DNA of 58,628 bases, taken from the NCBI GenBank assembly GCA_964517315.1, contig CAZFCJ010000006.1:1-58628 (forward strand), in the 5' to 3' direction. Shown piece by piece: positions 11,168 to 50,355 of the stretch. The translations under genes and the position numbers were made by a program. Each line of letters opens with the position of its first letter. The first letter of the stretch is position 1. The notes under the pieces were generated by a model. The model did not search any database, had not been told where the DNA came from, and saw nothing but the letters and a program-made list of their open reading frames with translations. The stretch is from an uncultured Anaerolineaceae bacterium (GTDB lineage Bacteria; Chloroflexota; Anaerolineae; Anaerolineales; E44-bin32).

Positions 11168-11202
11168 GATCTATTACATTCGCTCGGGCCGGCTCTTACT
11201 AT
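11168..11202 (+). promoter_or_regulatory. Island promoter motif GATCTAT-N22-TACTAT
   Basis: Read directly; same geometry upstream of several island genes. Confidence 0.6.
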
Positions 11203-11247
11203 CGACCCACAACCGGAAATCGAATGCCAAGTGGAGGAGGAGCAACT

Positions 11248-12147
11248 GTGCATAGGAACAAGTTTTACGTATGGGGTTTACTGGTTTTGATCCTGGCTCT
11301 CGCCTTGGGCGCTTGCGCCGAGCAGGGTGAAGATCTCACCGCCACTCCGGTCGGAGGCGTGGTGACCGAGACAGCCGAACCGAGCCCGGTCGAGACCGAG
11401 CCAGCGGCCACTGAGACGGAGGTCACCGAAGCCCCCGCCGAGACGGCCACGCCGACGCAAGACACGGGCGAAATGGAGACACCCGATTCGGTGCGCGCCC
11501 AGGACTTGCTCGATGCCGAGGTTCACATCGGCAGCGAAGCGGAGGCCTCGGCTGAAGTTGAGGATCTACTGATGGATGCCAATGGCAACATCCGCTGGGT
11601 GATCCTTACCGACCTCGAAACCGATGAGACGCTGGCCACGAGCATCGAGAGCTACCGCTACGAACAGCGCGAGGAAATGAGCCGGTTGACGGCTGAGACG
11701 GATCCCAGGGCCGAGGCCGAAACCATCGACCTCGACGCTGCCTTCGGCGACGATGCTTTCCTGGACGAGGATGCCGAAGTCCCGGCCAGCTTCTCCGGCG
11801 AGCAACTGATCCGCATGAGCGGATACACCGACTTCGACCTTCAAAATGATGCCGGAGAAGACCTGGGTGAGGTTGAGGGTCTGATCATCGACCTGCAATC
11901 GATGCAGGTCACCTACGCCATCGCAGATGTCGGCGGGTTCCTGGGAATAGGCGAAAACACCGTTCTGATCCCTTGGGAGCGGCTCGAATTGCAGCAGGCT
12001 GACGACGAGGAGCAGCCTCAGTTCGTCCTGCCTGGTGTGGATCAGGAGAGACTGGAGAACGCCCCCACCGTCGATCTGGACGCCATCGACCTGAGCCAGG
12101 AGAACTGGGACGAGGAATATCAGTCCTTCTGGACAAACGGCAGCTAG
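11248..12147 (+). CDS. Acidic lipoprotein with PRC-barrel domains
   Basis: GTG after GGAGGAGG; signal peptide with lipobox LGAC; T/E/P/A linker; GEDLGEVEGLIID...YAIADVGGFLGIGE...IPW. Confidence 0.85.
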   Translation: MHRNKFYVWGLLVLILALALGACAEQGEDLTATPVGGVVTETAEPSPVETEPAATETEVTEAPAETATPTQDTGEMETPDSVRAQDLLDAEVHIGSEAEASAEVEDLLMDANGNIRWVILTDLETDETLATSIESYRYEQREEMSRLTAETDPRAEAETIDLDAAFGDDAFLDEDAEVPASFSGEQLIRMSGYTDFDLQNDAGEDLGEVEGLIIDLQSMQVTYAIADVGGFLGIGENTVLIPWERLELQQADDEEQPQFVLPGVDQERLENAPTVDLDAIDLSQENWDEEYQSFWTNGS

Positions 12148-12171
12148 CATCAGTCACGCTTCAAATCAGAG

Positions 12172-12887: not shown

Positions 12888-13979
12888 TCAGTGAACCATC
12901 CCACCGGCCAGCTGCGGATCCCTCAACAGTTCGAGGCATTCCTCTTCAATTTGCCGCACTCGCTCCCGCGTGATTCCGAGCCGCCGGCCAATAGCCGCCA
13001 GGGAGTGCGTTCGCCCGTCACGCAGGCCAAAACGCAGTCTGATAACCAGGGCCTGGTGCGGGCTCAAGTGCTTCAACAAGTCCTGAACTTGCCGCTCCAA
13101 TTCTTGTCGGCGGTCATCGGCCAGAATCGGATGGGGGTCCTCATCCGGTATGGTGTCTTCCAGCGTCCGTAGACCTTCTCCGGGAACGCGCTCGTTCAGA
13201 GATACTGGGTGGAGGGCATACTCCTGAAGTTGCCTGACCCGTGCCGGCTCGATCCGCAATTCCGAACCCAGTTCCTCCTCCGTGGGCTCACGGCCCAGGT
13301 CCTGTTCGAGCCGCATTCGGCACTTCCTCATGCGGGTGATGGCGTTGATCGTATGCACGGGTATGCGGATGGTCCGGGCGTTGTTCTCAATGCTCCGGCG
13401 GATGGATTGCCGAATCCACCAGGTAGCGTAGGTGGAGAATTTAAAGCCGCGCCGGTGGTCAAATTTTTTAATCGCTCTCATCAAACCCAAGTTGCCATCC
13501 TGCACCAAGTCGGCCAGCGGAACCCCTCGACCGACGTAACGTTTGGCCATGCTGATCACCAGGCGCAGGTTCGCCGCAATCAGATGCCGACGGGCGGCCT
13601 CGCCTTGACGGATGCGCCGGACCGCTTCCTCCGGGGAGAGATCACCCGCGGCTAATTGGCGCCTTGCCTCAGCACCCGCTTCAATCCGCTTGCTCAAGGT
13701 GACTTCCTGCTCCTGAGTAAGGAGTGGCACCTGGCCGGCTTCGTCCAAGTAGAGACTGAAACTGTCGCCGTGACGCCGTCCTTCCGAACCATCCACGCGG
13801 GATCCGTTCTTCGACTGCTTGAGTACTTCCACGCCGCGTTCCTCAAGCTGCTGCTGAACCCAGACAATCCGCTCCTCGTTGCCGGCACCATTGAGCAGAC
13901 TGCTGATGTCCTGCCGGAAGACGTAGCCTTGAGACTCGGCGAGCTCAGTGAGTTTTTCGATGGCCTGCTTCTGATTCAA
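12888..13979 (-). CDS. RNA polymerase sigma-70 factor (RpoD/RpoS-like, probably group 2)
   Basis: YLDEAGQVPLLT (1.2), ANLRLVISMAKRY, GNLGLMRAIKKFD..RGFKFSTYATWWIRQ (2), TRERVRQIE (4.2); TTG start with GGAGGG. Confidence 0.92.
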   Translation of the reverse strand: MNQKQAIEKLTELAESQGYVFRQDISSLLNGAGNEERIVWVQQQLEERGVEVLKQSKNGSRVDGSEGRRHGDSFSLYLDEAGQVPLLTQEQEVTLSKRIEAGAEARRQLAAGDLSPEEAVRRIRQGEAARRHLIAANLRLVISMAKRYVGRGVPLADLVQDGNLGLMRAIKKFDHRRGFKFSTYATWWIRQSIRRSIENNARTIRIPVHTINAITRMRKCRMRLEQDLGREPTEEELGSELRIEPARVRQLQEYALHPVSLNERVPGEGLRTLEDTIPDEDPHPILADDRRQELERQVQDLLKHLSPHQALVIRLRFGLRDGRTHSLAAIGRRLGITRERVRQIEEECLELLRDPQLAGGMVH

Positions 13980-14550: not shown

Positions 14551-16176
14551 TTAGGCTTGAGACTGGAGCCAACCGTAGCCGTAGGGGCGCAGGAGCAAAC
14601 GTTGCCCTTCAATTCGTAACGGTTGCCGTCCATCGGAAAGCAGCGTGGTGAGCTCGGCGGATTCGGCACCGATGGCCTCCAGACCCACCTGTTGGGCCTC
14701 TTCGGTCAAGTTGTGCAGCGCGGTGACTTCCCTTCCGTGCCAGCTGCAACGGTGGGCGAACACGTGAGGGCTCGACACTTCTAGAACCTGGCAGGCTCCA
14801 TTGCCCAGCTCAGGTGCGTCCCGCCGTGCTCGGAGCATGTGCCCAATCCGGCTCAATAGCGAATCCCGATTACTCTGCTGATCCACCACGTTGATGCGTT
14901 CGTAGCCGAATGGGCCTTCATTAATTACCGGCCGGATCAGATGGTCCGGCTCGGCGGTCGAAAATCCTGCGCTGCGCTTCGCCGTCCATTGCATCGGCGT
15001 ACGAATCGCGGTCCGGCCGCTTAACGACAGATCGTCTCCCATACCGATCTCCTCACCGTAGCGCAGCACGGGCGTTCCCGGCATCGAGAACATCAGGCTG
15101 TAGGCCATTTCGATCTTGGCCCGCTTACCCTTGAGCATCGGTGGCAGCCGCCGTCGGATGCCGCGACCGAATATACGCATACGCTCTTCCGGGGCGAATT
15201 TTTCAAATACCTCCTGCCGCTCTTTATCCGTCAATCGGTCCAGGTTCAGTTCATCATGATTGCGCAGGAAGTTGGCCCACTGACCGTTCGGTGGGATGGA
15301 AGGGATCTCCTGCATGCTGTTTCGGATGGGTTCCGCCCGCTCCCGTGCCAATCCCAAGATCAGGTGCTGATTGAGCAGGAAATTGAAGAGCATGTGCATG
15401 CGGCTGTCGCCGGCGAAGTACTCATTGACCTTGTCCGGAGCGACGTTGGCTTCAGCCAGCAGGATCGCGTCGCCCTGATGCCACGACAGGTAGTCCCTGA
15501 ATTCGTCCAAATAGAGATAGGGATTATCAACATGGGGATCATCGATCCCCTTCAACTCGATCAGGAAAGGAGCCGCGTCCAGCCGAAACCCCGATACCCC
15601 CAAGGCGAGCCAAAAGCTCATGATCTTGCGCATTTCCTCCCGAACCTGGGGGTTGGCGATGTTCAATTCGGGCTGGTGCTTATAGAAGCGATGGTAGTAA
15701 TAGGCGCCGGCCTTCCGATCGTATGTCCACGTGGATTCCTGTTGGCCGGGGAAGACCATCCCCTTATCGGCTCCTTTGGGTTTCTCCTCCGACCAGACGT
15801 AGAAATCGCGGTACTTCGAGTCAGGGTTTCGCCGGGCCTGCTTAAACCATGGATGGTTGATTGAGGTGTGATTGATCACCAGGTCGACGACGACTCGCAG
15901 ACCGCGCTCCCACGCCAGATCCATGAACTTGACAAAGTCACCAAGGGTCCCCAACCGGGCATCCACTCCGTAGTAGTCCAGTACGTCATAGCCGTTGTCA
16001 CGGTTGGGTGAAGGGTAGAAGGGCAGCAGCCAGATTGTGTTCACGCCTAAATTGGCGATGTAGCCGATCTTTTCGCACAGACCGCCAAAATCACCGATGC
16101 CATCGCCGGTGCTGTCTTTGAAGGTCTCAACATCCAAACAATAGATCAACGCATTCTTATACCATCGTTCTGTCAT
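14551..16176 (-). CDS. treS: GH13 alpha-amylase family protein, trehalose synthase-like
   Basis: WYKNALIY, DLVINHTS, GFRLDAAPFL, LLAEAN, FLRNHDEL, YGEEIGMGD, RTPMQW. Confidence 0.8.
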   Translation of the reverse strand: MTERWYKNALIYCLDVETFKDSTGDGIGDFGGLCEKIGYIANLGVNTIWLLPFYPSPNRDNGYDVLDYYGVDARLGTLGDFVKFMDLAWERGLRVVVDLVINHTSINHPWFKQARRNPDSKYRDFYVWSEEKPKGADKGMVFPGQQESTWTYDRKAGAYYYHRFYKHQPELNIANPQVREEMRKIMSFWLALGVSGFRLDAAPFLIELKGIDDPHVDNPYLYLDEFRDYLSWHQGDAILLAEANVAPDKVNEYFAGDSRMHMLFNFLLNQHLILGLARERAEPIRNSMQEIPSIPPNGQWANFLRNHDELNLDRLTDKERQEVFEKFAPEERMRIFGRGIRRRLPPMLKGKRAKIEMAYSLMFSMPGTPVLRYGEEIGMGDDLSLSGRTAIRTPMQWTAKRSAGFSTAEPDHLIRPVINEGPFGYERINVVDQQSNRDSLLSRIGHMLRARRDAPELGNGACQVLEVSSPHVFAHRCSWHGREVTALHNLTEEAQQVGLEAIGAESAELTTLLSDGRQPLRIEGQRLLLRPYGYGWLQSQA

Positions 16177-16212: not shown

Positions 16213-17283
16213 TTACGATCGCCCTTCATGAGTCTTCTTGGCGATCAAGTATTTTGCATGGGACCATAGCAGGGGCGAGGCAATGTCGCCCCAGAATCCG
16301 CGCCAGGGCTCCAGGTAACTCGGCTCGTTCATGTTTTGTGGAATTTGTTCAGGAAGCCAACCGCGTTCATTCGCCTGCTGCTCCACCCAATCCAGCAGAG
16401 GTTCGGCCCGGCCCAATCGACCACAGTCGAGGTGGTATTTGGCCAGCCAGGCCGACAACAACAACCACGCGCCACCCCCATAATAAGTATCCTGTAAATT
16501 GCGGTGAACGCCCTGACCGCGCCGCAGCTGTTCTTCAATTCGCTTCACTGTCCTCACGAGCCGAGAATCGTCAAGGGGGACAATGGTGGACGGAAAGGCC
16601 ACTCCTAGCAAGCTAGCATCGATCCGCGCGTCGCCCACCGAACGAATAAAGGCCCCATCGAGCACGCCGTTGTGGAGCACGAACTGCCGGATCTGATCCA
16701 CTATCTGGATCGGAATCTGATCGTTAAGGCGCTTCCAGGCCTGCAACCCGGCCCAGATCGATGCCAAGGTGTAGATGTGCAGTCGGCGGTCGGCCTCCTC
16801 CCACACGTCGTAGCAGGGCACGCTCCACAGGGCGACGAGGTAGCCGCTGAGGCTTTCAGCGGCTCGTCTCATCTCCTCCGGCAGCTCGTCGACTTCCGTC
16901 AGTCGAGCGTGCTGCTGCAAGGCCCATAACCAGGTGCCCAGTCCGTCCAGTTGAAAATTGGACCATGGCATCTCTTTCACTGGCCGGCCCTCTACAGTAT
17001 AGCGAGTGTGAAGAATCATATCCTCTTCCAGTGGTTGGCCATCCCGGGCGCGTTCGATGGCGGCCACCAAGCGATTCTCACGAGACAAGATAACCTCGGA
17101 CGACCAATGGAAGAACCGTGTGGACGATGTGCTTTCACCCCATAGGTCAAGGGCGTGGGCGCAGTAGGCTCCATCGCGAAACCAGCAGTATTGGTAGGGT
17201 CCAAAATTGGGGCCGGCGATGTAGGCGCCGCTCTCGGCCTGGTTGGCGGTGATGATCTCGATGCTTCGGCGGGCTAGATCCAT
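16213..17283 (-). CDS. Glycoside hydrolase family 15 (glucoamylase/trehalase-like)
   Basis: YQYCWFRDG, QLDG, DVWEE, DASLL, LPEQ, PLLWSHA. Confidence 0.85.
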   Translation of the reverse strand: MDLARRSIEIITANQAESGAYIAGPNFGPYQYCWFRDGAYCAHALDLWGESTSSTRFFHWSSEVILSRENRLVAAIERARDGQPLEEDMILHTRYTVEGRPVKEMPWSNFQLDGLGTWLWALQQHARLTEVDELPEEMRRAAESLSGYLVALWSVPCYDVWEEADRRLHIYTLASIWAGLQAWKRLNDQIPIQIVDQIRQFVLHNGVLDGAFIRSVGDARIDASLLGVAFPSTIVPLDDSRLVRTVKRIEEQLRRGQGVHRNLQDTYYGGGAWLLLSAWLAKYHLDCGRLGRAEPLLDWVEQQANERGWLPEQIPQNMNEPSYLEPWRGFWGDIASPLLWSHAKYLIAKKTHEGRS

Positions 17284-17638: not shown

Positions 17639-17989
17639 CTAATGCCAGTACGGCTCGTAACCATAGTAATCGTAGATCTCGATCAAGAAGTCACGTTCGA
17701 CGGTCTCCGGCCAGTCATCCTTGTCAAATCCAGGCGCGTTCTCCAACTCCTCCTTGACCACATCCAGGATCAACCGCTCGTTCACGGTGTCCACCTGCAG
17801 GGCGCCCCATGGGATCGCGAAAAGCTTGTCACCCATTCCCAGGAATCCCCCGAAGGACAGGACCGCATACGCCACCTGGCCGGTATCCACGTCGAGCATG
17901 ATTTCTTCGAGCTCGCCCAAATCTTCACCGGCCGAATTAACGACGTTGTCACCGATCAAAGTCGAAGCCGATAACACCAGGCTGTTCAT
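17639..17989 (-). CDS. PRC-barrel domain protein
   Basis: LSASTLIGDNVVNSAGEDLGELEEIMLD...YAVLSFGGFLGMGDKLFAIPW...APGFDKDDWP...YYGYEPYW; start re-called. Confidence 0.92.
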   Translation of the reverse strand: MNSLVLSASTLIGDNVVNSAGEDLGELEEIMLDVDTGQVAYAVLSFGGFLGMGDKLFAIPWGALQVDTVNERLILDVVKEELENAPGFDKDDWPETVERDFLIEIYDYYGYEPYWH

Positions 17990-18258
17990 CGCTCGTTCCT
18001 TTGTCATCTTTGCCCAATTTGACTGAGGATAGTCCTGGAAATTTGGAAACGCCTGTATCGGGGTACATATTCCGAGATAGATTGCACGCCTATGATCGGG
18101 GTCCGGCTTCGGGAAGGGTGACACGCGGGTATATATCCCCTTCCAGTACTTGCGACTATTCCATCCTTCCTCGGCCTCACTCAGCATGGTTGTGGAAGCA
18201 CAGCTTTGCGCACCATGCTTGCAAAAACAATTTCATGACCCCATTGAAGGAGACAGGC

Positions 18259-19215
18259 ATGAAGCTCGGTTACGCCTTATCCAGCGAAGAACATCCGCCT
18301 CCTGACCTAGTCCGGAACGCCCAAAGGGCGGAGAGCGCGGGCTTTGATTTCGCGTTGATATCCGATCATTTCCATCCATGGATCGACCGACAGGGGCATA
18401 GCCCTTTCGTTTGGAGCGTGATTGGGGCCATCAGTCAGGTCACCGGTGAGCTTGAATTGGGCACCGGCGTCACCTGCCCGACCATGCGCATTCATCCGGC
18501 CATCATCGCGCAAGCTGCCGCCACCAGCGCCGCGCTCATGCCCGGTCGCTTCTTTCTGGGCCTGGGCAGCGGTGAAAACCTCAACGAACATATCCTTGGG
18601 CACCGCTGGCCCCCGTACGACCTGCGAGCCCCCATGCTCGAGGAGGCGGTCGAAATCATCCGGCTGCTGTGGGAAGGGGATTCGGTCACCTACTACGGCG
18701 ACTTCTATGACGTGGAGGAAGCGCGTATTTACACCCTGCCGGAGACTCCGCCCTCGATCTATCTGGCAGCCGGCGGCACGAAGTCCGCCGAGCAAGCCGG
18801 ACGCTTGGCTTCTGGGCTCATTTCCACTAGCCCGAAACACGAGTTGGTCAAGGCGTTCCGAGATCAGCTCGACGGCGGCGGGGACGCAATCGGCATGCTC
18901 ACGGTCTGCCATGCCAAGGACTACGACACGGCCCTCGACACCGCTTTCGAATGGTGGCCCAACAGCGCCCTACCGGGTGAACTGGCCCAGGAGTTGCGGA
19001 CCCCTGAACACTTTGAGCAGGCTACCCAATTAGTCACCAAGGAGCAGCTCGAGCGAAGTCTGACCCTGGGCAATGATGTGGAGACCTATTTGCAATCCGT
19101 CCAAAAATTCATCGATGCCGGCTTCGACAGGATCTATTTCCACCAGGTGGGACCCGATCAGGAAGGGTTCATGCAGTTCTTCAAGAATTCTCTTAAGCCG
19201 GAATTGGATCTCTAA
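18259..19215 (+). CDS. LLM-class (probably F420-dependent) oxidoreductase, G6PDH-like family
   Basis: GYALSSEEH, ISDHFHPW, GTGVTCPTMR, GSGENLNEH, HQVGPDQ; AAGGAG RBS. Confidence 0.9.
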   Translation: MKLGYALSSEEHPPPDLVRNAQRAESAGFDFALISDHFHPWIDRQGHSPFVWSVIGAISQVTGELELGTGVTCPTMRIHPAIIAQAAATSAALMPGRFFLGLGSGENLNEHILGHRWPPYDLRAPMLEEAVEIIRLLWEGDSVTYYGDFYDVEEARIYTLPETPPSIYLAAGGTKSAEQAGRLASGLISTSPKHELVKAFRDQLDGGGDAIGMLTVCHAKDYDTALDTAFEWWPNSALPGELAQELRTPEHFEQATQLVTKEQLERSLTLGNDVETYLQSVQKFIDAGFDRIYFHQVGPDQEGFMQFFKNSLKPELDL

Positions 19216-20351: not shown

Positions 20352-20618
20352 TCAAGCCGCGCGGCGAACGAAGTTCACCAGCGCCAACAGCACGACGGCC
20401 CCGATGAAGGAAACCAACAGCCCCGACATACTGAAGTCGCCGGTGTTGATGGTGCCGGTGCCAAAGACCGGCCCCAGCAGGAAGCCACCGAGGAGTGCGC
20501 CGACAATCCCGACCACGATGTTCAAAAGGGCACCTTGCCGAGGGTCGGTGCCCATAACCATGCTGGCGAGCCAGCCGATGATCGCGCCGACAACCAACCA
20601 AACAATGAGACCGATCAT
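20352..20618 (-). CDS. GlsB/YeaQ/YmgE (transglycosylase-associated) stress membrane protein
   Basis: GAIIGWLAS...NIVVGIVGALLGG...SFIGAVVLL. Confidence 0.92.
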   Translation of the reverse strand: MIGLIVWLVVGAIIGWLASMVMGTDPRQGALLNIVVGIVGALLGGFLLGPVFGTGTINTGDFSMSGLLVSFIGAVVLLALVNFVRRAA

Positions 20619-21224
20619 TTTGACTACTCTCCTTCTTTTAGGGGGTGGGCATTAAGCCGGGACCGCCTCGTTGCTGCAGGACAGCCAGTCATGAAATCAT
20701 TCCCGCCTTCAAGCGGCGCAATTGCTGTCCCGGCTTCACCTTGTGCCATGTTGACATGGGGCATGGCCAAACTCAATATATCCTTATCCCCTCCACGGAT
20801 GCAGTGGGGGATACAAAGGGGTGGGATCCCCTCGAGCATACGCTGCTAGGATGTTTGATCCATAGGCAGCAGTCCGCCCATTTTGTACAATCCTGAACCA
20901 TGGAAACGTTTCCTTCATGGTCGCCCTACATAAGCCTTGCGACCCTTGTGTTTCTCATGTTGGTCGGATCTGTGGTCAAGCTGCCCGAGTTGGTCGTTTT
21001 CGCCGGCGGAGCAGCCTTACCCATCGGGTTGCACTGCTTGAAACGTGAAGCCAAGCTGCGGGATATGCACGACAACTAGTCTCAAAGCCTCAGCAAGCTC
21101 GCTTTGGAACCGATCAGATCCGGTCCACAACGGCGCGCCGGCCAGGCCGGTTCTCTCGCCCCCCCTGGCCATGTATGGTCCCCTGCCTCACCCGATGTCT
21201 CATCTGAAACCGCAGATCGGTCCA

Positions 21225-21479
21225 TTATGTCTCTTGAGTAGGGGCTTGCTCTTCCTTCGTTTGAAGCCTCTCAAGCAATTCCTCAGCCTGCTGCCGGGTG
21301 TCGGTGGCGGCTCGCTCCAATTCCTTTCGGATTTGATCGGATTTGTCCTTCAGTTGGGCGATGGTCTGCTCACCCGATTGGGGGGCATTCAGGATCGCGA
21401 TCGCGGCACCCACCAATCCGCCCAATAGCAACCCGCTGATGAAGGAGCCTAACCCGCTCCTCGTGTCATTCGTAGCCAC
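21225..21479 (-). CDS. YtxH-domain protein
   Basis: FISGLLLGGLVGAAIAILNAPQSGEQT followed by a coiled coil. Confidence 0.88.
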   Translation of the reverse strand: MATNDTRSGLGSFISGLLLGGLVGAAIAILNAPQSGEQTIAQLKDKSDQIRKELERAATDTRQQAEELLERLQTKEEQAPTQET

Positions 21480-21514: not shown

Positions 21515-21549
21515 AGACTATGGGGCTTGACGCGCGAGAACCATAGATC
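21515..21549 (-). promoter_or_regulatory. Island promoter motif GATCTAT-N22-TAGTCT (YtxH gene)
   Basis: Read directly on the minus strand. Confidence 0.6.
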
Positions 21550-21713: not shown

Positions 21714-22463
21714 ATGGAGAATTACACCTTCGATCTCCAGCGTATCTTTTTAGGGAACCTGCCGCCCCTGATCTTTCTCGAGATTGTTCTGCGGACGGTT
21801 CTCATGTACAGTTTCTCGCTTGCGTGTTTGCGGATTCTGGGAAAACGCAGCACGCGTGAACTGACGCCGGTGGATGTGATTCTGATCGTGGCCTTGGGCA
21901 GCGCAGTCGGGGACCCCATGTTTTCCCCTGACGTGCCGCTGCTCCATGGGATGCTGGTCGTCGGTCTGGTCATCGGTCTCCAGCGCCTGGCTGTGATGTT
22001 AGCCAATGACCATGCGAGGATCGAGAAAGGAATCAAAGGCTCGCCAGTTCGCCTGGTTGCCGAGGGCGTTCTAGACCTAAAAGCCAGGAAACAGGCCGAG
22101 TTTTCCCGAGACGAAATCTTCGCCATGCTACGTGAGCACGGTTACACAAATCTGGGCCAGGTGGCGCGGATGTACCTGGAAACCGACGGCAGCGTGACCC
22201 ATTACCCCTTCCCTGACGACCGCGCTGTCGCCGGGCTACCGGTCACACCTCCCTGGGAACTCGAACCCCCCAACGAAATAAAAGCGGGGGAGCGCCTGAC
22301 GGAGTCAACCCAGCTCGGTTGCAGTTATTGCGGCCACGTCATTCCCGCCGAGCAAGGAAAGACCGTTCCCCGCTGCCCGCGCTGCCATCGAACCGACTGG
22401 GTGATTGCGAGCGAGGCCGAGCAAGAAGATCCAACTGGTCAAGCGCCGGACACCCGTGGTTGA
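21714..22463 (+). CDS. DUF421/YetF-family membrane protein with C-terminal zinc ribbon
   Basis: RILGKR...LGSAVGDPM...LETDGSVT; C-terminal CSYC...CPRC. Confidence 0.85.
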   Translation: MENYTFDLQRIFLGNLPPLIFLEIVLRTVLMYSFSLACLRILGKRSTRELTPVDVILIVALGSAVGDPMFSPDVPLLHGMLVVGLVIGLQRLAVMLANDHARIEKGIKGSPVRLVAEGVLDLKARKQAEFSRDEIFAMLREHGYTNLGQVARMYLETDGSVTHYPFPDDRAVAGLPVTPPWELEPPNEIKAGERLTESTQLGCSYCGHVIPAEQGKTVPRCPRCHRTDWVIASEAEQEDPTGQAPDTRG

Positions 22464-22495
22464 CACCGATATTAAATGGAAGGCGACCCAGCCGA

Positions 22496-37826: not shown

Positions 37827-37887
37827 GAGGTAACAATCGTGAAAACAAGAGATACAGACAGGAACGAACCTCGAGCGGCCAAGGGAT

Positions 37888-39912: not shown

Positions 39913-40268
39913 TCGCTCGTCTGCTCTCCTTGGCATTGGGACTCTGGCTGATGGCCGCGCCAGCGGTCCTCAACTACGGGCCACCGTTAGCCACCAGCGA
40001 CCGGATCATCGGCCCGCTCATCGCCACCGTCTCCATCATCGCGATCTCCGAGGCGACACGCGGGCTGCGTTGGGTTCCGCTTCCCGCTGGGCTGTGGTTG
40101 GTAACGTCGCCCTTGGTCATGAGCGGCTATGACCTGACAATGTTGTTCCACCACGCCTTGGTGGGTTTAGGGCTGGCTGCGCTTGCATTCTCCGGCGGCG
40201 ACATCCAGGGGCGTTACGGCGGCGGCTGGTCCGCCTTGTGGGCGGACGAGAAAGAGGCCGGTTCATGA
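39909..40268 (+). CDS. SPW-repeat membrane protein
   Basis: GLWLMAAP and GLWLVTSP repeats; RYGGGW tail; ATGA overlap with VKOR. Confidence 0.8.
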   Translation: MIARLLSLALGLWLMAAPAVLNYGPPLATSDRIIGPLIATVSIIAISEATRGLRWVPLPAGLWLVTSPLVMSGYDLTMLFHHALVGLGLAALAFSGGDIQGRYGGGWSALWADEKEAGS

Positions 40269-41647
40269 CGCCGACCACGGCCACAACTTCCGATCGCCGG
40301 GATGTAAGCAGCACACCCCAACAGGCACCGAAAGGATGGCGCCGGCTGCTATGGCTCGGACCGGGTTTCCTGTGGATGGTTTCCGCCGCTGGCTCTGGCG
40401 AGCTGTTGTTCACGCCGCGAATGGGAGCACTCTATGGCTATAGCTTGCTGTGGGCATTGATCACCGCAGTTGTCTTCAAGTGGGTCATTAATCGCGAGGT
40501 GGGGCGTTACACGGTGGCCACGGGGGAGACGGTGCTGGAGGGGATGCGCCGAATCCCCGGCCCTAACAATTGGGCGATCTGGTTGATCCTCCTACCCCAG
40601 TTGGTGGTGGCGGTGGCCACCATCGCCGGGCTGGCCGGCTCGGCCGCCAGCGCACTCATCCTGACCTTGCCGGGCGACATCCGAATATGGATGATCTTGG
40701 CGGTGCTGGCGTCCACCGCGCTCGTAGCCTGGGGCGAGTATCAGGGGATCGAGCGGGTCGCCATGGCCATCGCAATCGCCCTCGGAGTGGCCTCAGTCGT
40801 TGCAGCTCTGACCGCATTAACGGATCCTTCCCCTCTCCTGGTCGGCCTAGCCCCTCGAGTTCCAGCCGACATTGACTTTGGAGAGGTCCTGCCCTGGCTC
40901 GGTTTCATGCTGTCGGGCACCGCCGGCATGATCTGGTACTCCTATTGGCTTCGCAGCAAGGGTTACGGGGGGGCCACCAGCTCGCCGACGGAGACGTCGT
41001 CGCATTCTGAGGCTGACTTGGATAGGACCGCCCGGGAGCAGCTGCGTGGTTGGCTTCAGATGATGACTTTGGATAACAGCGTCGCCGTCATCGGGACCTT
41101 GATCATCACGGGTGCGTTCTTGATTTTGGGCACAGAGCTGTTGATGCCGCGTGGACTCGTACCGGCCGAGGATGAGATTGCCTCCGTTCTGGGTCGGCTG
41201 CTGGGCGAACTGTGGGGACCGATAGGTTTCTGGTTCATGGTGACAGCTGTCTTCATCGGATTTTGGGACACGGTATTGTCCGATCAGGATGGGTTCGGAC
41301 GGATGTTCGCCAACGGTCTCACACTACTTCCTGGGTTCAAGCAGCTGCTGACAAACCATTCGGACATAAGGGTCCGTCGCTGGCTGGTTCTGACCCTTTT
41401 GACCGCGATCCCCATCGGCGTGTATCTGCTCGTAGGCCGCCCCGTCGGCCTGCTAGCGCTGGCCGGCGCCATCGAGGCGGCCCAGATTCCAGTGCTGGCC
41501 GGCTTGGTGATCTGGATGAATGACCGGCTGCTGTCACCCTCGATTCGACCCACCTGGTACGAGCAAGCGGCCACGATCGTCGCCGGTGGTTTTTTTGCGC
41601 TCTTCGCTGCCTTCTTCCTGTGGCAGCTGATTGGATCCGCCGCTTAA
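40265..41647 (+). CDS. Nramp-family divalent metal transporter-like protein
   Basis: LGPGFLWMVSAAGSGE, GALYGYSLLWA, about 11 TMs; ATGA overlap. Confidence 0.8.
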   Translation: MTPTTATTSDRRDVSSTPQQAPKGWRRLLWLGPGFLWMVSAAGSGELLFTPRMGALYGYSLLWALITAVVFKWVINREVGRYTVATGETVLEGMRRIPGPNNWAIWLILLPQLVVAVATIAGLAGSAASALILTLPGDIRIWMILAVLASTALVAWGEYQGIERVAMAIAIALGVASVVAALTALTDPSPLLVGLAPRVPADIDFGEVLPWLGFMLSGTAGMIWYSYWLRSKGYGGATSSPTETSSHSEADLDRTAREQLRGWLQMMTLDNSVAVIGTLIITGAFLILGTELLMPRGLVPAEDEIASVLGRLLGELWGPIGFWFMVTAVFIGFWDTVLSDQDGFGRMFANGLTLLPGFKQLLTNHSDIRVRRWLVLTLLTAIPIGVYLLVGRPVGLLALAGAIEAAQIPVLAGLVIWMNDRLLSPSIRPTWYEQAATIVAGGFFALFAAFFLWQLIGSAA

Positions 41648-43703: not shown

Positions 43704-43832
43704 GGGACTGGGGTTTGTCCAATTCATTTGGAGTTCCAATTCATATCCACGTGTATATCGGGGATAGATGGCGACCCCCCGGAAGGTGTTTGACCATTTC
43801 GCTAAACGGTGTTCAAAGAAGGAGAAAAATCT

Positions 43833-44339
43833 ATGTCTCTCGAGACCCTCTACGACCTGTATATCGATCAATTGAAGGACCTCTACAGCGCCGAAAACCA
43901 ATTGGTGGACGCGTTGCCCGAGATGGCCGCTGCCGCGACGGACGCAGAACTGCAGCAGGCCTTTGAAGATCATGCCCAGCGGACCAGATCACACGTGGAA
44001 GAGGTGCGCGCTATCCTCGACGAACTCGATGTCGACCCCGGTAATAAGGTCTGCGTTGGCATGGAGGGCCTGATCAAGGAGAGCCGGGAAGTCATTGAGA
44101 AGGAGGCCTCGGCGGCAGCCAAGGACGCCGCGCTGATTCTGGCAGCGCAAAAGGTCGAGCATTATGAGATTGCGTCCTACGGCGGCCTCAGAACCTATGC
44201 CGAGTTGCTCGACTACGGCGATTTCGAGTCAACCCTGGCTGACATCCTCGACGAGGAGGGGCAGGCCGACAAGCGATTGACTGAATTGGCCGAAGGAAGA
44301 GTGTTTGAAAAAGGCTTGAACGTAAAAGCGCAGGAGTAG
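43833..44339 (+). CDS. yciF: YciE/YciF ferritin-like protein (DUF892)
   Basis: LKDLYSAENQL...MEGLIKE...DAALILAAQKVEHYEIASYG...EE..ADKRLT. Confidence 0.92.
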   Translation: MSLETLYDLYIDQLKDLYSAENQLVDALPEMAAAATDAELQQAFEDHAQRTRSHVEEVRAILDELDVDPGNKVCVGMEGLIKESREVIEKEASAAAKDAALILAAQKVEHYEIASYGGLRTYAELLDYGDFESTLADILDEEGQADKRLTELAEGRVFEKGLNVKAQE

Positions 44340-45836: not shown

Positions 45837-46167
45837 GCCATTTCCTACCTGTTTTGAAGTTTGCCCAACGGATCATCTTCCAGCCTGAAGCCGTTCCCAT
45901 GCGGGTGTGATCAATCGCGCCTCGCGCGGTTCGCGCTCTGCGAGCGCATTTTTTCCGGGCCCGATCAGGCATGTCGCTGTGATGGCTCGTGGACCCAACC
46001 TGAACCGCTTTCAGAAGATACTCAACAGACGGATTCGATCCAGACTAAACATAGTGAGCGAGCGATTGGAAGGCTTACGCCAAAGTGCATATTTAAAGGT
46101 AGATTGCAGGTATACGTTCGCTTGGGCTGGAAACCGCGGGGCGACATATATCCGCTTTTCGTACCTC

Positions 46168-46202
46168 GATCTATGGTCCCCGTACGTCTCGTATCCGAAA
46201 GT
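46168..46202 (+). promoter_or_regulatory. Island promoter motif GATCTAT-N22-GAAAGT
   Basis: TACCTCGATCTAT identical to the chaB site; weaker -10. Confidence 0.45.
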
Positions 46203-46419
46203 GAGAAGAACGTGGATGATCGCTTCGCGGGATGCTTTGGACGCCAGCTTCGTAAGGCGTGGTTCCTGGACGGGCCGCGATTGAAAACGGCCGTGTCAAG
46301 CTCCGCCCGGAGCGAGCGGAAGGCCTGTTCGCCCGCCCGTCACCATCAGTCGGCCGGCATGAGTTTTTTGGATGATCCAGACGCGGCCGTTGAGATGTCC
46401 GCGTGAGAGGAGAGCATTC

Positions 46420-46902
46420 ATGACAGACGCAGGTCCAAACCACCGGGAGCAGGTCAACCTTCAAGGGAAGGGCGCCGTATTGGGCCATCCAATTCATCCC
46501 ATACTTGTCGATTTTCCCATCGTCTTTCTGATCGGGGCGCTGGTGTCCGATGTGGCATTTGCATTATCTGGGCAAGCCTTTTGGGCGCTGCTCAGCCTGT
46601 ACGCACTCGGTGCCGGGGTCCTAATGGGTGTCCTGGCTGCGATCTTCGGAGTCATCGACTTCTTCAGCGTGCCCGCCGCTCGCGAGCTGCGAGCAGGTTG
46701 GATCCATTTCCTTGGAAACGCCGTCGTCCTGCTCATCGCGCTTGGCAATTTACTGCTGCGCTTAGGGGATTGGGAGCAAGCGGTGGTGCCTCTAGGCCTG
46801 ATTCTGTCTGCTGCTGCGGGATTGCTCTTAGGAATAACGGGCTGGTTCGGCGGGGCACTCGTCTTTCGGCATAAGATCGGCGTACGCCATCACGACCAAT
46901 GA
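46420..46902 (+). CDS. DUF2231 domain membrane protein
   Basis: GHPIHPILVDFPI...GVIDF...H...N...GWFGGALVFRH; GAGGAG RBS. Confidence 0.88.
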   Translation: MTDAGPNHREQVNLQGKGAVLGHPIHPILVDFPIVFLIGALVSDVAFALSGQAFWALLSLYALGAGVLMGVLAAIFGVIDFFSVPAARELRAGWIHFLGNAVVLLIALGNLLLRLGDWEQAVVPLGLILSAAAGLLLGITGWFGGALVFRHKIGVRHHDQ

Positions 46903-46924: not shown

Positions 46925-49501
46925 CTAAGCCGCGCCAACGACCTCGAGCATCTTCTTCGTGATCGACTGACGTTGCTCGAAGAACCCGTCCCAGGCGTCA
47001 CCTTGCGAGGCGTTCAGCCTATTACGAATATTGCCCAGATTGAATTCTTTCGCGCTTTCGACCCGGCCCAACTCCTCCCATGTCAGCGGTGTTGAGATCG
47101 GCGCCCCCTCCCGCGCACGCGTCGAATAGGGTGCCACGTTCGTCGCCCCTCGTGAATTCCTCAAGTAATCCACAAAGATCTTTCCTTTGCGCTTGGCTTT
47201 CGACGCCGTAGCCACATATTCGTCGGGCGCCTCCGCCGCCATACGGTCGGCGATGCCGTGCGCGAAGGCTTTCACTTCGTCCCAGCCGGTCCTCCGTTCC
47301 AAGGGAACGACGACATGGAGCCCTTTCCCTCCGGAGGTTTTCACGAAACATGCCAAGCCGTGATTCTGCAGCTTCTCATTAACCGATCGTGCTGCCTGGA
47401 CGACGCGCTGCCATTCCACGCCCGGACCTGGATCCAAGTCGAAAATCAGCCGATCGGGCCGGTCAAGGCGGTCGACTCTGCTGCCCCATGGATGGAGCTC
47501 GAGCGTGCCCAGCTGTGCGAGTTGAATGAGACCGGCCTTATCGTCGATGGACATGTAGGTCGCCTTCTCCCCGCTTTGCTCTTCCAACTCCACCCGATCA
47601 ATGGGACCCACAATCGAGTCGGTGTAATTCTTCTGGAAAAAGCACTCCTTCTCGTGTCCCTGCGGACAGCGCAGCAGCGCTATGGGCCGGTCGGAGATGT
47701 GGGGCAGGATTCGTTCGGCCACCGTATCGTAATAACTCGCCAGCTCGCGCTTTGTGACCCCTTGCTCGGGGAAAAGCACTCGATCGGGGTTGGAGAGACG
47801 TATGCCTGCAAAGACCGCTGCACTGGAATTCGCGCTCGAGGACCTCTCATTGGCCTTCATGTCTTCCATCACCTCCATTAGGAGCTGAGTCGCCGCTTCG
47901 TCGCTTTCCGGGATTTCCCTGCGCACCTCGTGGGGGTCTTTATCCTCCCGCAACCCGAGATAGGATGCCTGCCGCACGAGACCATCCCGTGTCCAATCCA
48001 CAAACTGGACCTCTACGACGAGAGACGGCTCGACCCAGTGGATCCCCCGAAGTCGCGATTCCCGAGGCGGAATGTCAAAAGCTGTCTTTCCCACTTCCAA
48101 GGTATGCAGCTTTGCGGAGAGACGTTTGAGCTCCGCCTGATCGAATCCTGTCCCCACACGCCCGGCGTAGATCAAGTCGCCTGAGGTATCGCGATAACCG
48201 AGCAGCAGCGCGCCAAAACCCTTTCGAACTCCCTTGGGATCTGTGTATCCCCCCACGACAAATTCCTGACGCAAGTAGCATTTCGACTTCTGCCAGGTTT
48301 GGGTCCGGCTTGAAACGTAGGGGCTGTCCTTGTGTTTGGAGATTATTCCTTCCAGGCCGATTCCGCACGCGTTCCGATAAACCTCGGGCCCACTTCCTAT
48401 GCTATGCCGGCTGAAACGCAGATGCTTTTCCCCTGTGGATTCAAGGATCTCCCCGAGCAGCGATTTTCTTGAATGCAGCGGCGCCTCACGCAAATCCACC
48501 GAATCAAGATACAGCAAATCGAAGACATAGAAATAGACCTTCGCGGTGGTGCGCCGGATGTTTTGAAGCTTTTGGAAATCGCTTTTCCCATGGGGGCCGA
48601 GGGCGACCACTTCTCCATCCAGAATGGCTCGATGGAGCGGAAGGGCCTCGATCGCCTTCTTGATCGTTTCGAATTTACTCGTCCAATCGTTTTCATTGCG
48701 CGTATAGAGCTGGACTTCGCCATCCTTCAGCAGTGCGAGCAAGCGATAGCCGTCAAATTTGACCTCATGAAGCCAATCCGACCCGGCGGGCACTTTGTCA
48801 ACCAGCGTGGCCAGCTGAGGCGTGAAAAAGCCTGGCCAATTGGCTTCCTTCGCCCCGTCCATATCGCGTGCCGCCTTTTCCCAACTTTCCACCTGCGACG
48901 CTTTGCCCGTGCTCGGCGCAGCTGGAGAGCCATCGGAAACCCGCAGGTCCTCCAGGATATTTCCGCTCTTTACGCTGCCAGGTCTAGCCTCAGTGATGGG
49001 ATAATCGTCTTCACTGCGGGCGTGCTCGTCATCGCCTTTGATGAGCAGCCAGTTCTTGGCCTCCTCACCCGCCTCGCCGTCCATGCGCACGAGCGTCCAC
49101 AACCCCCTCAATTTCTCACCCTCCAGCACAAAGCTGAGTTTCCCGGAGCGAAGTTCTTGCTTCGCCGATTTGGGCGCGTGCCAAATGCCACGATCCCATA
49201 GGATCACCTCGCCAGCGCCATACTCGCCTTCCGGAATGATGCCCTCGAACGTCCCGTAGGAGAGCGGGTGATCCTCAACCTGTATTGCCAGGCGTTTCTC
49301 AGAGGGATCAAGGCTGGGCCCTTTGGGCACCGCCCAGCTCTTAAACACTCCCTCAAGCTCAAGTCTCAAGTCGTAATGAAGCCGTGAGGCATCGTGCTTT
49401 TGGATGACAAATTTGCGCTCGCCCTGACGCCGTTCCGGTTCGCCTTTCGGTTCGGGCGTCTTCTCGAAATCTCGCTTCGCCCTGTACTCTCGTAAGCTCA
49501 T
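46925..49501 (-). CDS. ligD: DNA ligase D (phosphoesterase-ligase-polymerase order)
   Basis: YRAKRDF, QKHDASRLHYDLRLE (PE); EVKFDGYR (ligase); RCPQG, FDLDP, KTSGGKGLH (Pol). Confidence 0.96.
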   Translation of the reverse strand: MSLREYRAKRDFEKTPEPKGEPERRQGERKFVIQKHDASRLHYDLRLELEGVFKSWAVPKGPSLDPSEKRLAIQVEDHPLSYGTFEGIIPEGEYGAGEVILWDRGIWHAPKSAKQELRSGKLSFVLEGEKLRGLWTLVRMDGEAGEEAKNWLLIKGDDEHARSEDDYPITEARPGSVKSGNILEDLRVSDGSPAAPSTGKASQVESWEKAARDMDGAKEANWPGFFTPQLATLVDKVPAGSDWLHEVKFDGYRLLALLKDGEVQLYTRNENDWTSKFETIKKAIEALPLHRAILDGEVVALGPHGKSDFQKLQNIRRTTAKVYFYVFDLLYLDSVDLREAPLHSRKSLLGEILESTGEKHLRFSRHSIGSGPEVYRNACGIGLEGIISKHKDSPYVSSRTQTWQKSKCYLRQEFVVGGYTDPKGVRKGFGALLLGYRDTSGDLIYAGRVGTGFDQAELKRLSAKLHTLEVGKTAFDIPPRESRLRGIHWVEPSLVVEVQFVDWTRDGLVRQASYLGLREDKDPHEVRREIPESDEAATQLLMEVMEDMKANERSSSANSSAAVFAGIRLSNPDRVLFPEQGVTKRELASYYDTVAERILPHISDRPIALLRCPQGHEKECFFQKNYTDSIVGPIDRVELEEQSGEKATYMSIDDKAGLIQLAQLGTLELHPWGSRVDRLDRPDRLIFDLDPGPGVEWQRVVQAARSVNEKLQNHGLACFVKTSGGKGLHVVVPLERRTGWDEVKAFAHGIADRMAAEAPDEYVATASKAKRKGKIFVDYLRNSRGATNVAPYSTRAREGAPISTPLTWEELGRVESAKEFNLGNIRNRLNASQGDAWDGFFEQRQSITKKMLEVVGAA

Positions 49502-49551
49502 ACATATCTGCTTTCTGGTCGACGGACCGGGCACCACCTCGTCAGGTCCGG

Positions 49552-50355
49552 CTAGCTCCCCACCTTTTCGACGCTGCGCTGCAGGAGTTCGGTCACGTCG
49601 ATGGGCTCCGTTGTTTCCACGTCCCCGACGGGCTCTGCCGCCGAGGGCGAGGTTTCGATCTCGCCCGCCTCGACCCTCTCCTGAATCCAGTCCAGCAGCG
49701 CCTGACGATATTCATCGTGATAGGCTGAGGGATCCCATTCCTCCGTCATCGCCTCCACGAGTTGGGAGGCTAATTCCTCCTCCTTCTCTGTGATGTCGTA
49801 GGCCGAGGCGGATTCCTCCGGCAGATCGAATTCCTCGGGACTGCGCAGCTCTTGTCCATAGCGCATAAGAATCAGGAAGAGTGCCCTATCCTTTGGAACC
49901 AGCGCGGCCAGGTATTCGCGCGTGCGCACAACGACGCGCGCCACACCGACTTTTCCGTGCTTCTCCAGCGTTTCGCGCATGAGTACGTAGCTTTTCTCGC
50001 CCTTCGCCCGCGGAACGAGATAATAGGGCTTATCGAAGAAAATATCATCGATAGCATCGCGCGTTACGAAGCTTTCAATTTCCACCGCCTGTGTGGCCTC
50101 CGGCGCGGCCTTTTTAAAATCCTCGTCGGATAAGACAACATACTGGCCTTCGTCGTACTCGAAGCCTTTGACGATTTGATCCCAAGGAACTTCCTCACCG
50201 GTGATGTCGTTTACGCGCTGATAGCGGATACGCGCCTTGTCGCGGCTGTCGAGCATGTTGAAATCAAGATCGGTGTTGACCTCCGCCGAGTACAGGCTGA
50301 CAGGAATATTTACGAGTCCGAAGGCGATATGCCCCTTCCAAATCGCGCGCGGCAT
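49552..50355 (-). CDS. ku: Ku protein (NHEJ)
   Basis: RAIWKGHIAFGLVNIPV, IVKGFE, FDKPYYL, YHDEY. Confidence 0.96.
   Translation of the reverse strand: MPRAIWKGHIAFGLVNIPVSLYSAEVNTDLDFNMLDSRDKARIRYQRVNDITGEEVPWDQIVKGFEYDEGQYVVLSDEDFKKAAPEATQAVEIESFVTRDAIDDIFFDKPYYLVPRAKGEKSYVLMRETLEKHGKVGVARVVVRTREYLAALVPKDRALFLILMRYGQELRSPEEFDLPEESASAYDITEKEEELASQLVEAMTEEWDPSAYHDEYRQALLDWIQERVEAGEIETSPSAAEPVGDVETTEPIDVTELLQRSVEKVGS

Follow-up and report, generated by a model that had tools for sequence, protein, structure and literature searches.

We analyzed a 58,628-nucleotide (nt) stretch of DNA (positions 1-58628 of contig C6; hereafter, the window) from the 4.06-Mb, 326-contig genome assembly of an uncultured Anaerolineaceae bacterium (labelled G000). 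The segment from 11168 to 50355 brings together about 40 general-stress-type genes on the chromosome of a soil Anaerolineales bacterium, with functions that range from small hydrophilic and membrane stress proteins to trehalose metabolism, the homeostasis of ions and redox state, and end joining by Ku-LigD. Embedded in this cluster (the island) are a sensor kinase, a response regulator resembling GacA/UvrY and two LuxR-type regulators which, together with an exact GacA-type inverted repeat and a set of similar promoter boxes, suggest a two-tier cascade of NarL-family proteins that would control the surrounding cargo genes, a reading to which we give an even chance. Scans of the window proteins against Pfam and NCBIfam recovered within these bounds all the families listed in an initial annotation made from the sequence alone, and added an F420-type luciferase-like (LLM) oxidoreductase, YetF/DUF421, an EEP nuclease/phosphatase, a YegS-type lipid kinase, DoxX, VKOR, SPW, ASRT, DUF305/CopM and DUF2231. 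The role in desiccation that the annotation also proposed is suggested by the gene families alone.

The putative regulatory core is encoded on the plus strand. The sensor kinase gene (29295-31337), with two N-terminal hydrophobic segments, two or three PAS domains, HisKA_3 and HATPase_c, overlaps by 8 nt the gene for a canonical NarL-family response regulator (31330-31986; PF00072 and PF00196), which keeps the DD, D and K receiver residues in an alignment. The best match of this regulator among 82 NCBIfam families is UvrY/SirA/GacA (NF007018), at 190.9 bits, below the family cut-off of 280, and the kinase has the simple PAS, HisKA_3, HATPase_c architecture in place of the tripartite HisKA, REC and Hpt arrangement of UvrY/GacA systems. 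Further downstream are a decayed stand-alone receiver gene (32195-32520), with two in-frame TGA codons and one frameshift, and two NarL-type genes, LuxR1 (32500/32575-33276) and LuxR2 (33304-34008). Contigs from public sequencing runs show no indel in the decayed gene, at low depth, and one of them is identical to the window over 31373-32313.

Both LuxR proteins are predicted to be pseudo-receiver (atypical) NarL-type regulators. In an alignment of 11 sequences, all three canonical regulators retain the acidic pair, the phospho-acceptor Asp and also the Lys, whereas in the eight of the LuxR1/LuxR2 type S, N or G takes the place of the phospho-acceptor and none has the Lys. LuxR1 and LuxR2 have in common the recognition-helix motif E[VL]GTVKNHVH[NS], whereas the response regulator has SPKTVSTYRRR. 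LuxR2 matches NarL over residues 8-220 in one comparison and 54-220 in another, and the nearest solved structures by sequence are NarL, VraR, DesR and DevR.

The same order of genes, kinase, regulator, optional stand-alone receiver, LuxR-A and LuxR-B, recurs on another contig of this genome (C186) and in two other genomes (G001:C44 and G023:C247); it is partly kept in G002:C65, from the same genus, and in G244:C133, from another genus, and G395:C30 has the receiver and two LuxR genes, with no kinase or regulator in the 12 kb examined. The stand-alone receiver gene is intact in the paralogous module on C186 and in G001, G023 and G395. Proteins of this LuxR type are uncommon, with matches at E<=1e-30 in 16 of 401 genomes, G000 among them, and the distant ones, from other families of the order, are encoded beside DUF892, SDR, LLM, YihY, PRC, CsbD, MgtC and DUF3309 genes.

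Between the response regulator gene and the receiver remnant, on the plus strand, lies the inverted repeat TGTAAGAATACGCTTACA (TGTAAG-N6-CTTACA; 32054-32071), an exact instance of the GacA/UvrY consensus TGTAAGNNNNNNCTTACA, with an extra CTTACA half-site (32088-32093) 16 nt downstream. In the parts of the UvrY study that we draw on, csrB and csrC are described as having, far upstream, an 18-nt repeat of this kind to which UvrY binds, and partial half-sites close to it (PMC4682653). In the window, TGTAAG-N6-CTTACA has eight matches at up to three mismatches, with shuffled sequences giving 7.1, and a single exact one. In the entire genome the exact repeat occurs twice, at 32054 and at C186:1202, each time directly after a GacA-like regulator gene, and eight scrambled-arm controls give 0-1 matches. 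The relaxed form TGTARG-N6/7-CYTACR is found upstream of the REC/LuxR operon at five loci in two genera, those of the window, C186 (TGTAAGCTTTTTCCTACA), G001:C44 (TGTAGGACTGGTCCTACG), G023:C247 (TGTAGGCCTGCGTCCTACG) and G395:C30 (TGTAGGATGTCGTCCTACA), and its arms co-vary, being AAG/CTT in the window, AGG/CCT in G001, G023 and G395, and mixed AAG/CCT on C186.

The position of the repeat relative to the promoter is nearly constant. In the window, the predicted -10 element of the LuxR operon, TATGAT (32138-32143, plus strand), puts the repeat center at about -87.5, and across the five loci the values are -87.5, -88.5, -88.5, -90 and -89, with the start taken from the first TAnnnT downstream of the repeat, which in four of the five is the sole one within 110 nt. 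In the other 79 related loci, mostly those of generic NarL regulators, near matches to the repeat occur in five, one of them identical to the G001 operator. No Csr/Rsm-like small RNA (sRNA) was detected after the repeat, and none of the Rfam families attains its gathering threshold anywhere in the window; the genes 3' of the repeat are the decayed receiver gene and the two LuxR genes, in place of the sRNA targets of UvrY/GacA. The prediction that the repeat is the operator of the LuxR operon appears well supported, and its spacing from the promoter corresponds to the geometry of a class I activator.

The second type of shared element is found at the promoters of the cargo genes. The heptamer GATCTAT occurs 11 times in the window, compared with 4.17 expected, a count that none of 100 shuffles reaches; of its 226 copies in the genome, 11 are in the island (2.2 expected), and of the 63 intergenic copies, six are in the island (0.9 expected), all six oriented towards the next gene. 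The initial annotation placed these sites, as promoters, at the end of the cascade, below the LuxR pair and the sigma factor. The enriched, conserved and co-oriented box is real enough, but it does not appear to be a -10 or any other sigma-type element: GATCTAT as the -10 was rejected because the T at -7 is missing in six of the eight aligned sites. The sequences indicate instead that it is the unit closest to the promoter in a series of T(G/A)TA(T/C)C direct repeats, 21 nt upstream of a TAnnnT -10; on account of this distance and of the repeats, we interpret it as an activator site.

Five island promoters have this organization: those of the first PRC-barrel gene (GATCTATT-N21-TACTAT, 11168-11202, hexamer 11197-11202, plus strand); of YtxH (21515-21549, hexamer TAGTCT at 21515-21520, minus strand); of DUF3309-DUF1328 (CTGTATCTC-N23-GATCTATG-N21-TAGCAT, from 26848, hexamer 26910-26915, plus strand); of a small acidic protein of about 89 amino acids (aa) (GATCTATC-N21-TAAATT, from 34665, hexamer 34694-34699, plus strand); and of ChaB-lipid kinase-EEP (CTGTATCTC-N22-GATCTATC-N21-TAGGCT, 37792-37857, hexamer 37792-37797, minus strand). 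At most promoters the proximal box is immediately preceded, at 10-13 nt from start to start, by another unit of the type (T/G)(A/G)TA(C/T)C or by a weaker version of it, and further units follow at steps of approximately one helical turn, as in TGTATC/TGTTTT/TGTTAC/TCTATC upstream of chaB. With the -10 set at -12 to -7, the proximal unit occupies positions from about -39 to -34, and the center of the proximal pair lies near -42.

Related elements occur elsewhere in the island. Upstream of ku, on the minus strand, are three direct repeats, CTGTATC, CTGTATC and CTATATC, 11-12 nt apart (50697-50726). TGTATC, TATATCC and ATCTATC lie between the second PRC-barrel gene (17639-18187, minus strand) and the LLM gene (plus strand), and CTGTATCTCAGCATCTATCC (39256-39275) lies in the divergent region between DoxX and VKOR. 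TATATC is found 166 nt upstream of the CsbD gene (28696-28908, minus strand) and 55 nt upstream of DUF892/YciF (43809-44339, plus strand), and CATATATCC-N13-GATCTATG (46145-46175, plus strand) precedes DUF2231. The LuxR promoter contains CTATCTATGA, which was considered as a further cargo box and rejected because its TATGAT is the -10 at the conserved distance from the inverted repeat.

The composite TCTAT[CGT]-N21-TAnnnT has 10 matches in the genome, five of which are in the island, that is, in 1% of the genome. All five are intergenic and co-oriented; four end 22-44 nt before the starts of open reading frames (ORFs), and the fifth is inside the longest-ORF call for the acidic protein, with the probable start (M at 34777) 78 nt further on. 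Twelve other spacings (14-20 and 22-26) yield 0-2 island matches each. In 100,250 nt from the loci of relatives, the looser form TCTA[TC][CGT] gives six matches at spacing 21, and none of the ten other spacings tried gives more than one. Two of these six matches lie ahead of YGGT genes (in G001 and G395), and another (L095:572), antisense inside a gene, looks like chance. The strict pattern GATCTATB-N21-TANNNT, compared with a reversed control, has 6 and 0 matches in G000, 3 and 0 in G002, and 3 and 2 in G244.

The elements are kept at individual orthologous promoters, the flanks of which have diverged: that of YtxH in G002 has TATATCCACGATCTATGG followed at a distance by TATCCT, and that of ChaB in G244 has CTATATCC, TCGATCTATCG and, after a further 21 nt, TAGGCT; CTGTATCTCAGCATCTATCC between DoxX and VKOR in the window corresponds to ATGTATCTGCCTATCTATCC in G244. 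The word TRTATC is present within 250 nt upstream of 12 of the 44 island genes, compared with 142 of the 3443 other genes (4.1%), and of 4 of the 16 paralogues of cargo genes outside the island (p=0.0035). Intergenic copies of this word point towards the next gene in 14 of 14 cases in the island and in 117 of 234 elsewhere. Sequence comparison thus supports the conclusion that a box containing GATCTAT is common to the island promoters and is also found conserved in other species and genera.

These elements can be assembled into a plausible sequence of events. The membrane-anchored PAS/HisKA_3 kinase would phosphorylate the adjacent GacA/UvrY-like regulator, a pairing suggested by the families of the two proteins, the 8-nt overlap of their genes and their conserved adjacency. 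The regulator would then bind TGTAAG-N6-CTTACA, centered approximately 88 nt before the start of the operon of the decayed receiver, LuxR1 and LuxR2, and act as a class I activator. LuxR1 and LuxR2, which have one recognition-helix sequence between them, may in turn bind the T(G/A)TA(T/C)C direct repeats, which succeed one another at intervals of about one helical turn; the proximal unit, GATCTAT(C/G/T), exactly 21 nt upstream of TAnnnT, would form, together with its upstream neighbor, a site near -42, the position of a class II activator, at promoters that appear to have no -35 hexamer. The predicted output is the activation of at least five island promoters (PRC, YtxH, DUF3309-DUF1328, the small acidic protein and ChaB-lipid kinase-EEP), with VKOR, DoxX, DUF2231, DUF892, CsbD, GlsB and ku-ligD, along with CsbD, DUF892, PRC and YGGT genes elsewhere in the genome, as probable further targets. 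Of the cascade put forward in the initial annotation, the supported parts are the kinase and GacA-like regulator upstream of the exact repeat, the repeat ahead of the pseudo-receiver LuxR pair, the recurrence of this layout at five loci, and the conserved box common to the island promoters; the link to the sigma factor is weak.

A number of points weigh against this reading. The box patterns were defined post hoc, from the island itself. ATCTAT, GTATCT, TGTATC and GTTACCT rank high among the k-mers of the island intergenic DNA, and no single k-mer survives the correction for multiple tests except, marginally, GTTACCT. Our expectation-maximization motif search placed TCCATCGATC- and CGATCTATGG-type motifs among the top ones, weakly, the CGATCTATGG-type not being first. 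The strict pattern has no match in G001, G023 and G395, all of which have the LuxR pair, and at least one match in 44 of 81 genomes, many without a match to the LuxR2 query; in G073, where that query found nothing, one match precedes Hsp20-Lon. The co-occurrence of regulator and motif is therefore seen no further than in G000, G002 and G244. The chaB gene of G001 keeps CTGTATCT (TGTATC) without the proximal box, and in the island, the PRC2, VKOR, DUF2231 and LuxR promoters deviate from the 21-nt rule. About 12 sigma genes of extracytoplasmic function (ECF) size elsewhere in the genome, and two STAS plus HATPase_c_2 (RsbV/RsbW-like) pairs, at C90:8059-8793 and C9:42036-43158 and none in the window, could also act on the cargo genes. 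Finally, the genome is 88.9% complete, genes were called with our own crude codon-score caller trained on the long ORFs of the genome, so that start codons are approximate, and a search of public runs found no RNA run containing the stretch. A position weight matrix built from six sites is circular and was not used as evidence.

The post hoc definition of the motif and the non-significance of single k-mers, along with the G+C content of the island (0.582, compared with 0.625 for the genome), which by itself would enrich A+T-rich words in general, could also be read as signs of mere co-location, with stress genes lying side by side, their common words reflecting chance or composition, and the two-component system regulating its neighbors only. 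We regard this as quite improbable, given that the 21-nt spacing is singled out in the genome and, independently, in the DNA of relatives, that the boxes are kept at orthologous promoters across genera with diverged flanks, and that intergenic TRTATC invariably points towards genes in the island and is found also at paralogues outside it.

The regulator half-site, TGTAAG, shares TGTA with TGTATC, such that the regulator could bind both, which is a further argument against a LuxR tier at the boxes. The GacA-like regulator would then recognize the inverted repeat and the direct-repeat boxes alike, leaving the LuxR proteins as accessories or as acting elsewhere. Published precedents, so far as the cited parts of the reports go, are compatible with such an arrangement: NarL-family proteins can use inverted as well as direct repeats, as ComA does (PMC4797271), and UvrY crosslinks near the -35 region in addition to the upstream inverted repeat (PMC4682653). 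The likelihood of this arrangement nevertheless seems low to us, because the exact inverted repeat is confined to the two LuxR operons, the recognition helices differ (SPKTVSTYRRR in the regulator and GTVKNHVH in LuxR1 and LuxR2), and in distant genomes a single LuxR of this type is encoded beside the same cargo, with no kinase or regulator in the stretch examined.

Returning to the two-tier cascade, its components are not confined to the island, which contradicts the earlier description of the island as self-contained. The contig C186 (1-4867) carries a second module, consisting of a kinase fragment, a response regulator, the inverted repeat, REC, LuxR-A, LuxR-B and a sigma-70 paralogue. C186 shares an exact 55-nt end overlap with C107 (1-11455), and the ORF of the sigma factor continues across the junction, from which it follows that the second module is followed directly by a sigma-70 paralogue. 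On C107, 3' of this sigma gene, come a boxed promoter, TATATCC-N25-GATCTATGG-N21-TACACT (C107:956), which is the sixth strict match in G000, a gene for a small membrane protein and, further on, CsbD. Boxed clusters of cargo-type genes are found on two more contigs, C118 (CsbD 4462-4665, DUF892 5450-6043, YGGT-like 7983-8414) and C108 (PRC 203-1147, DUF892 2221-2730); both carry TGTATCC/TATATCC elements, and CTGTATCCGCAGATCTATCG precedes the YGGT-like gene of C118.

Both modules of G000 thus have a sigma-70 paralogue nearby. The island sigma gene (12888-13979, minus strand) encodes an RpoD-like protein of 362 aa with regions 1.1-4 and is one of six RpoD-like genes in the genome. In region 2.4 the protein has QSIRRSIENN, compared with Q(A/T)(I/V)(T/S)RAIAD(Q/K) in the four full-length paralogues aligned, and it scores below every curated cut-off (298.5 versus 384.5 for TIGR02997, 295 versus 464 for NF005920, and 254.7 versus 378.7 for rpoS). 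It is conceivable that the boxes are read directly by this factor, in which case the cluster would be an RpoS/group-2-like sigma regulon and the LuxR pair would have some other role. In line with this are the full RpoD-like character of the protein, the divergence of region 2.4, the presence of a paralogue near both kinase-regulator-LuxR-LuxR modules (in the second, directly after the LuxR pair and ahead of a boxed promoter) and the -10 hexamers of the boxed promoters, which often conform to TAGnnT. Against it, the box taken as a -10 would be without the T at -7 in six of eight sites, and taken as a -35 would have to work with a 21-nt spacer; the DNA ahead of the sigma gene itself showed no box; and no clear orthologue was found in G001, G002, G023 or G008 (best 43-54% over long stretches; a partial G002 stretch at 62%, which tblastn puts at 46%), even though G001 and G002 keep the boxes. 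G244 keeps them as well, and the 8.3-kb contig examined there holds no sigma gene, nor was one seen in the DNA examined around the modules of G001, G023 and G395. On balance, direct reading of the boxes by the sigma factor seems improbable. The place that the initial annotation gave to the sigma factor within the cascade is not supported, the gene showing neither a boxed promoter of its own nor a clear orthologue in the relatives searched that keep the boxes. Within the proposed two-tier cascade, the extra sigma-70 paralogue may act as a partner sigma; this is the weakest link, with adjacency as the only pointer to it.

Known stress switches of other types were looked for as well. As the initial annotation had stated, no Rsb anti-sigma or PhyR/NepR genes are seen in the Pfam and NCBIfam scans of the window, in which no dedicated PhyR search was made. 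NepR (PF18557) has no match in the genome, with the Caulobacter control found; no SigB/F/G-type sigma exceeds the TIGR02980 cut-off (best 145 versus 234 bits); and the EcfG-type promoter GGAAC-N15-18-CGTT has two matches in the window, both inside genes, compared with 1.54 expected.

Taken together, these findings bring to mind, in the form of a tentative and rather doubtful generalization, a general stress response of soil Anaerolineales that would operate without a dedicated stress sigma/anti-sigma switch, through a two-tier NarL-family relay. A GacA-type operator outside the Proteobacteria would drive a tandem, phosphorylation-blind LuxR pair that sits head-to-tail on direct repeats near -42 and brings the polymerase to promoters lacking a -35, those of genes of the CsbD, YtxH, ChaB, DUF892 and Ku types, possibly with a module-specific sigma-70, the module being present twice in the genome, each copy with its own sigma and cargo.

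The remaining genes of the island can be followed from left to right. The first PRC-barrel gene (11224-12147, plus strand; PF05239), with the likely true start at GTG 11248, after GGAGGAGGAG, is followed by the sigma-70 gene and, on the minus strand, by a TreS-type maltose alpha-D-glucosyltransferase (14551-16176), a GH15 glucoamylase/trehalase-like protein (16213-17283) and the second PRC-barrel protein, the true start of which is probably near 17993, divergent from the LLM gene (18001-19215, plus strand; TIGR03557, domain from residue 89). Then come GlsB/Transgly_assoc (20352-20618, minus strand), a conserved 59-aa ORF (20900-21079, plus strand), YtxH (21225-21479, minus strand), YetF/DUF421 (from 21693, plus strand), YihY/BrkB (22319-23389, plus strand), two AI-2E family transporters (23719-24915 and 24912-26177, minus strand), DUF3309 (26959-27111, plus strand), DUF1328 (27156-27365, plus strand) and CsbD (28696-28908, minus strand), divergent from the kinase gene. 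The 59-aa ORF, between GlsB and YtxH, is 79% identical to a counterpart at the same place in G002 and has no family match apart from a weak, sub-threshold one to NAS.

Directly 3' of LuxR2 is an MgtC family gene (34053-34604, plus strand), followed by the gene of the acidic, Tyr/Glu/Arg-rich protein (34777-35046, plus strand), which has no Pfam family and no counterpart on the G002 contig. On the minus strand, an EEP family protein (35491-36510), the YegS-type lipid kinase (36611-37525), ChaB (37556-37759) and, from 37888, an unknown 191-aa protein and then DoxX are encoded; on the plus strand, up to 43241, VKOR, SPW, Nramp, an unknown 205-aa protein and a PRK07109-type short-chain dehydrogenase/reductase (SDR). 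The cluster ends with DUF892/YciF (43809-44339, plus strand), ASRT and DUF305/CopM (minus strand, between DUF892 and DUF2231), DUF2231 (46372-46902, plus strand), LigD (46925-49537, minus strand) and Ku (49552-50355, minus strand). Thirteen of these families, ChaB, DUF3309, DUF1328, VKOR, SPW, Nramp, ASRT, DUF305, DUF2231, GH15, EEP, Ku and LigD, are matched nowhere else in the genome at E<=1e-5, and copies of CsbD, DUF892, PRC, YtxH, GlsB, MgtC, DoxX and YihY exist outside it as well.

Parts of this order are shared with relatives. G002 retains the blocks TreS-GH15-PRC, LLM to CsbD and kinase, and LuxR1-LuxR2-MgtC-EEP-kinase, and G244 retains LuxR1 through SPW; G002 and G023 share the arrangement of csbD and the kinase gene, and G002 and G244 the adjacency of LuxR2 and MgtC. 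A LigD-like gene (61% identity, 537 aa) is found at G002:C167 4580-6193, between the YihY and CsbD genes, where the window has AI-2E, DUF3309 and DUF1328, which implies that the cluster has been rearranged within the genus.

The island does not stand apart from its surroundings as a mobile element might. Low G+C (about 0.57-0.61) spans positions 1-51000, with no edge at 11168, and rises to about 0.62 from about 51000; the left flank (1-11000) carries transport, aminotransferase and cytochrome oxidase genes, and the right flank (from 51335; G+C about 0.62), sugar-metabolism genes. No integrase or transposase family is among the Pfam matches for the window and there is no sharp edge in composition, so that the usual marks of a mobile island are missing (flanking repeats were not searched for). 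The stretch is present in soil metagenome runs of three studies, and the contigs of four public runs cover it fragmentarily and at low depth. ARAGORN calls a tRNA-Thr(tgt) at 40209-40284, across the junction of the SPW and Nramp genes, which is probably a false call because Rfam, at gathering thresholds, finds no tRNA there. Separately, the 8-mer GAAATGAG recurs in the intergenic DNA (five counted, 0.28 expected), often just 3' of gene ends, with sites at 17516, 19243 and 27364 on the plus strand and at 12710, 14267 and 43394 on the minus strand.

Chloroflexota are abundant in soils, and our search of the literature showed, among the papers listed, no description of a general stress response in this phylum. 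If the proposed cascade is correct, it would provide a map from regulator to operator, box and cargo for Chloroflexota, a case in which a GacA-type operator serves genes for protein regulators in place of sRNA genes, and a source of compact stress-inducible promoter parts. The tandem pseudo-receiver LuxR pair would, moreover, add a new case to the question of how pseudo-receivers are controlled, which is raised in the part of the literature represented by PMC12632262. Should the reading fail, the region would still be a well-annotated cluster of stress genes. In the accessible portions of the sources compared here, we found no description of this combination, that is, a GacA-type operator that drives a tandem pseudo-receiver LuxR pair, with direct-repeat boxes at about -42 on a stress regulon, in Chloroflexota.

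The proposed system nonetheless resembles, in the way it would work, known NarL-family cascades and pairs of atypical regulators. CsbD, YtxH, DUF892/YciF, PRC, GlsB, ChaB and Ku-LigD are typical members of the SigB, RpoS and PhyR-NepR-EcfG regulons, and the sigma-based responses (SigB partner switching, RpoS and PhyR-NepR-EcfG) accordingly deploy the same cargo families as the island; here, in contrast, NepR was not found, no SigB/F/G-type sigma exceeds the cut-off, EcfG-type promoters are not enriched, and the boxed promoters look activator-dependent. In mycobacteria, DosS/DosT-DosR (DevR) control a dormancy regulon of several dozen genes through HisKA_3 kinases, a NarL-family regulator and a repeated box. 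The island resembles this system in combining a HisKA_3 kinase, a NarL-family regulator and a repeated DNA box for a survival regulon, and DevR is among the structure matches; The DosR system, however, has one tier, its regulator is canonical, its kinases have GAF domains, its box is a 20-bp palindrome and its cargo is different (USP, HspX).

In Anabaena PCC 7120, the response regulator OrrA is described, in the part of the report cited here, as the master regulator of salt and dehydration genes, including those for trehalose synthesis, with a cognate kinase gene suspected upstream (PMC9804601). The likeness is functional, two-component control of stress and trehalose genes, in a different phylum, and that part of the report describes no LuxR-pair tier or box (PMC9804601). 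Two atypical NarL-family regulators acting together are known from Streptomyces, where BldM and WhiI, according to the portion of the study considered, form a phosphorylation-independent pair whose homodimers or heterodimers define regulons (PMC4125116). Unlike LuxR1 and LuxR2, these two are orphans whose genes do not lie in tandem; they govern development and have no GacA-type operator above them.

Another parallel is offered by the acid-resistance cascade of Escherichia coli, EvgS/EvgA to YdeO to GadE. The proposed cascade would similarly be headed by a two-component system of the NarL family, with a LuxR-type activator that lacks a working receiver in the tier beneath it, and would serve clustered stress cargo. 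A further likeness lies in the RcsB-GadE heterodimer of E. coli acid resistance, as outlined in the passages of the source consulted (PMC2887963), since in the island, too, two LuxR-family proteins are proposed to act jointly at one box. The differences from the EvgA-GadE system lie in the cargo, the absence of an AraC-type intermediate, the tandem pseudo-receiver paralogues and the direct repeats at about -42. A counterpart of the upper tier is found in BarA/UvrY and GacS/GacA: the regulator has UvrY/SirA/GacA as its best match, and the operator, in agreement with what the sections of the UvrY paper cited above report, combines the exact consensus with a nearby half-site, lies far upstream of its promoter and has very few targets, here two exact genomic sites (PMC4682653). 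The regulator, on the other hand, stays below the family cut-off, the kinase is of the PAS/HisKA_3 type and not a tripartite BarA/GacS, and the predicted target is a LuxR-type operon in place of a Csr/Rsm sRNA, in a member of the Chloroflexota and not of the Gammaproteobacteria.

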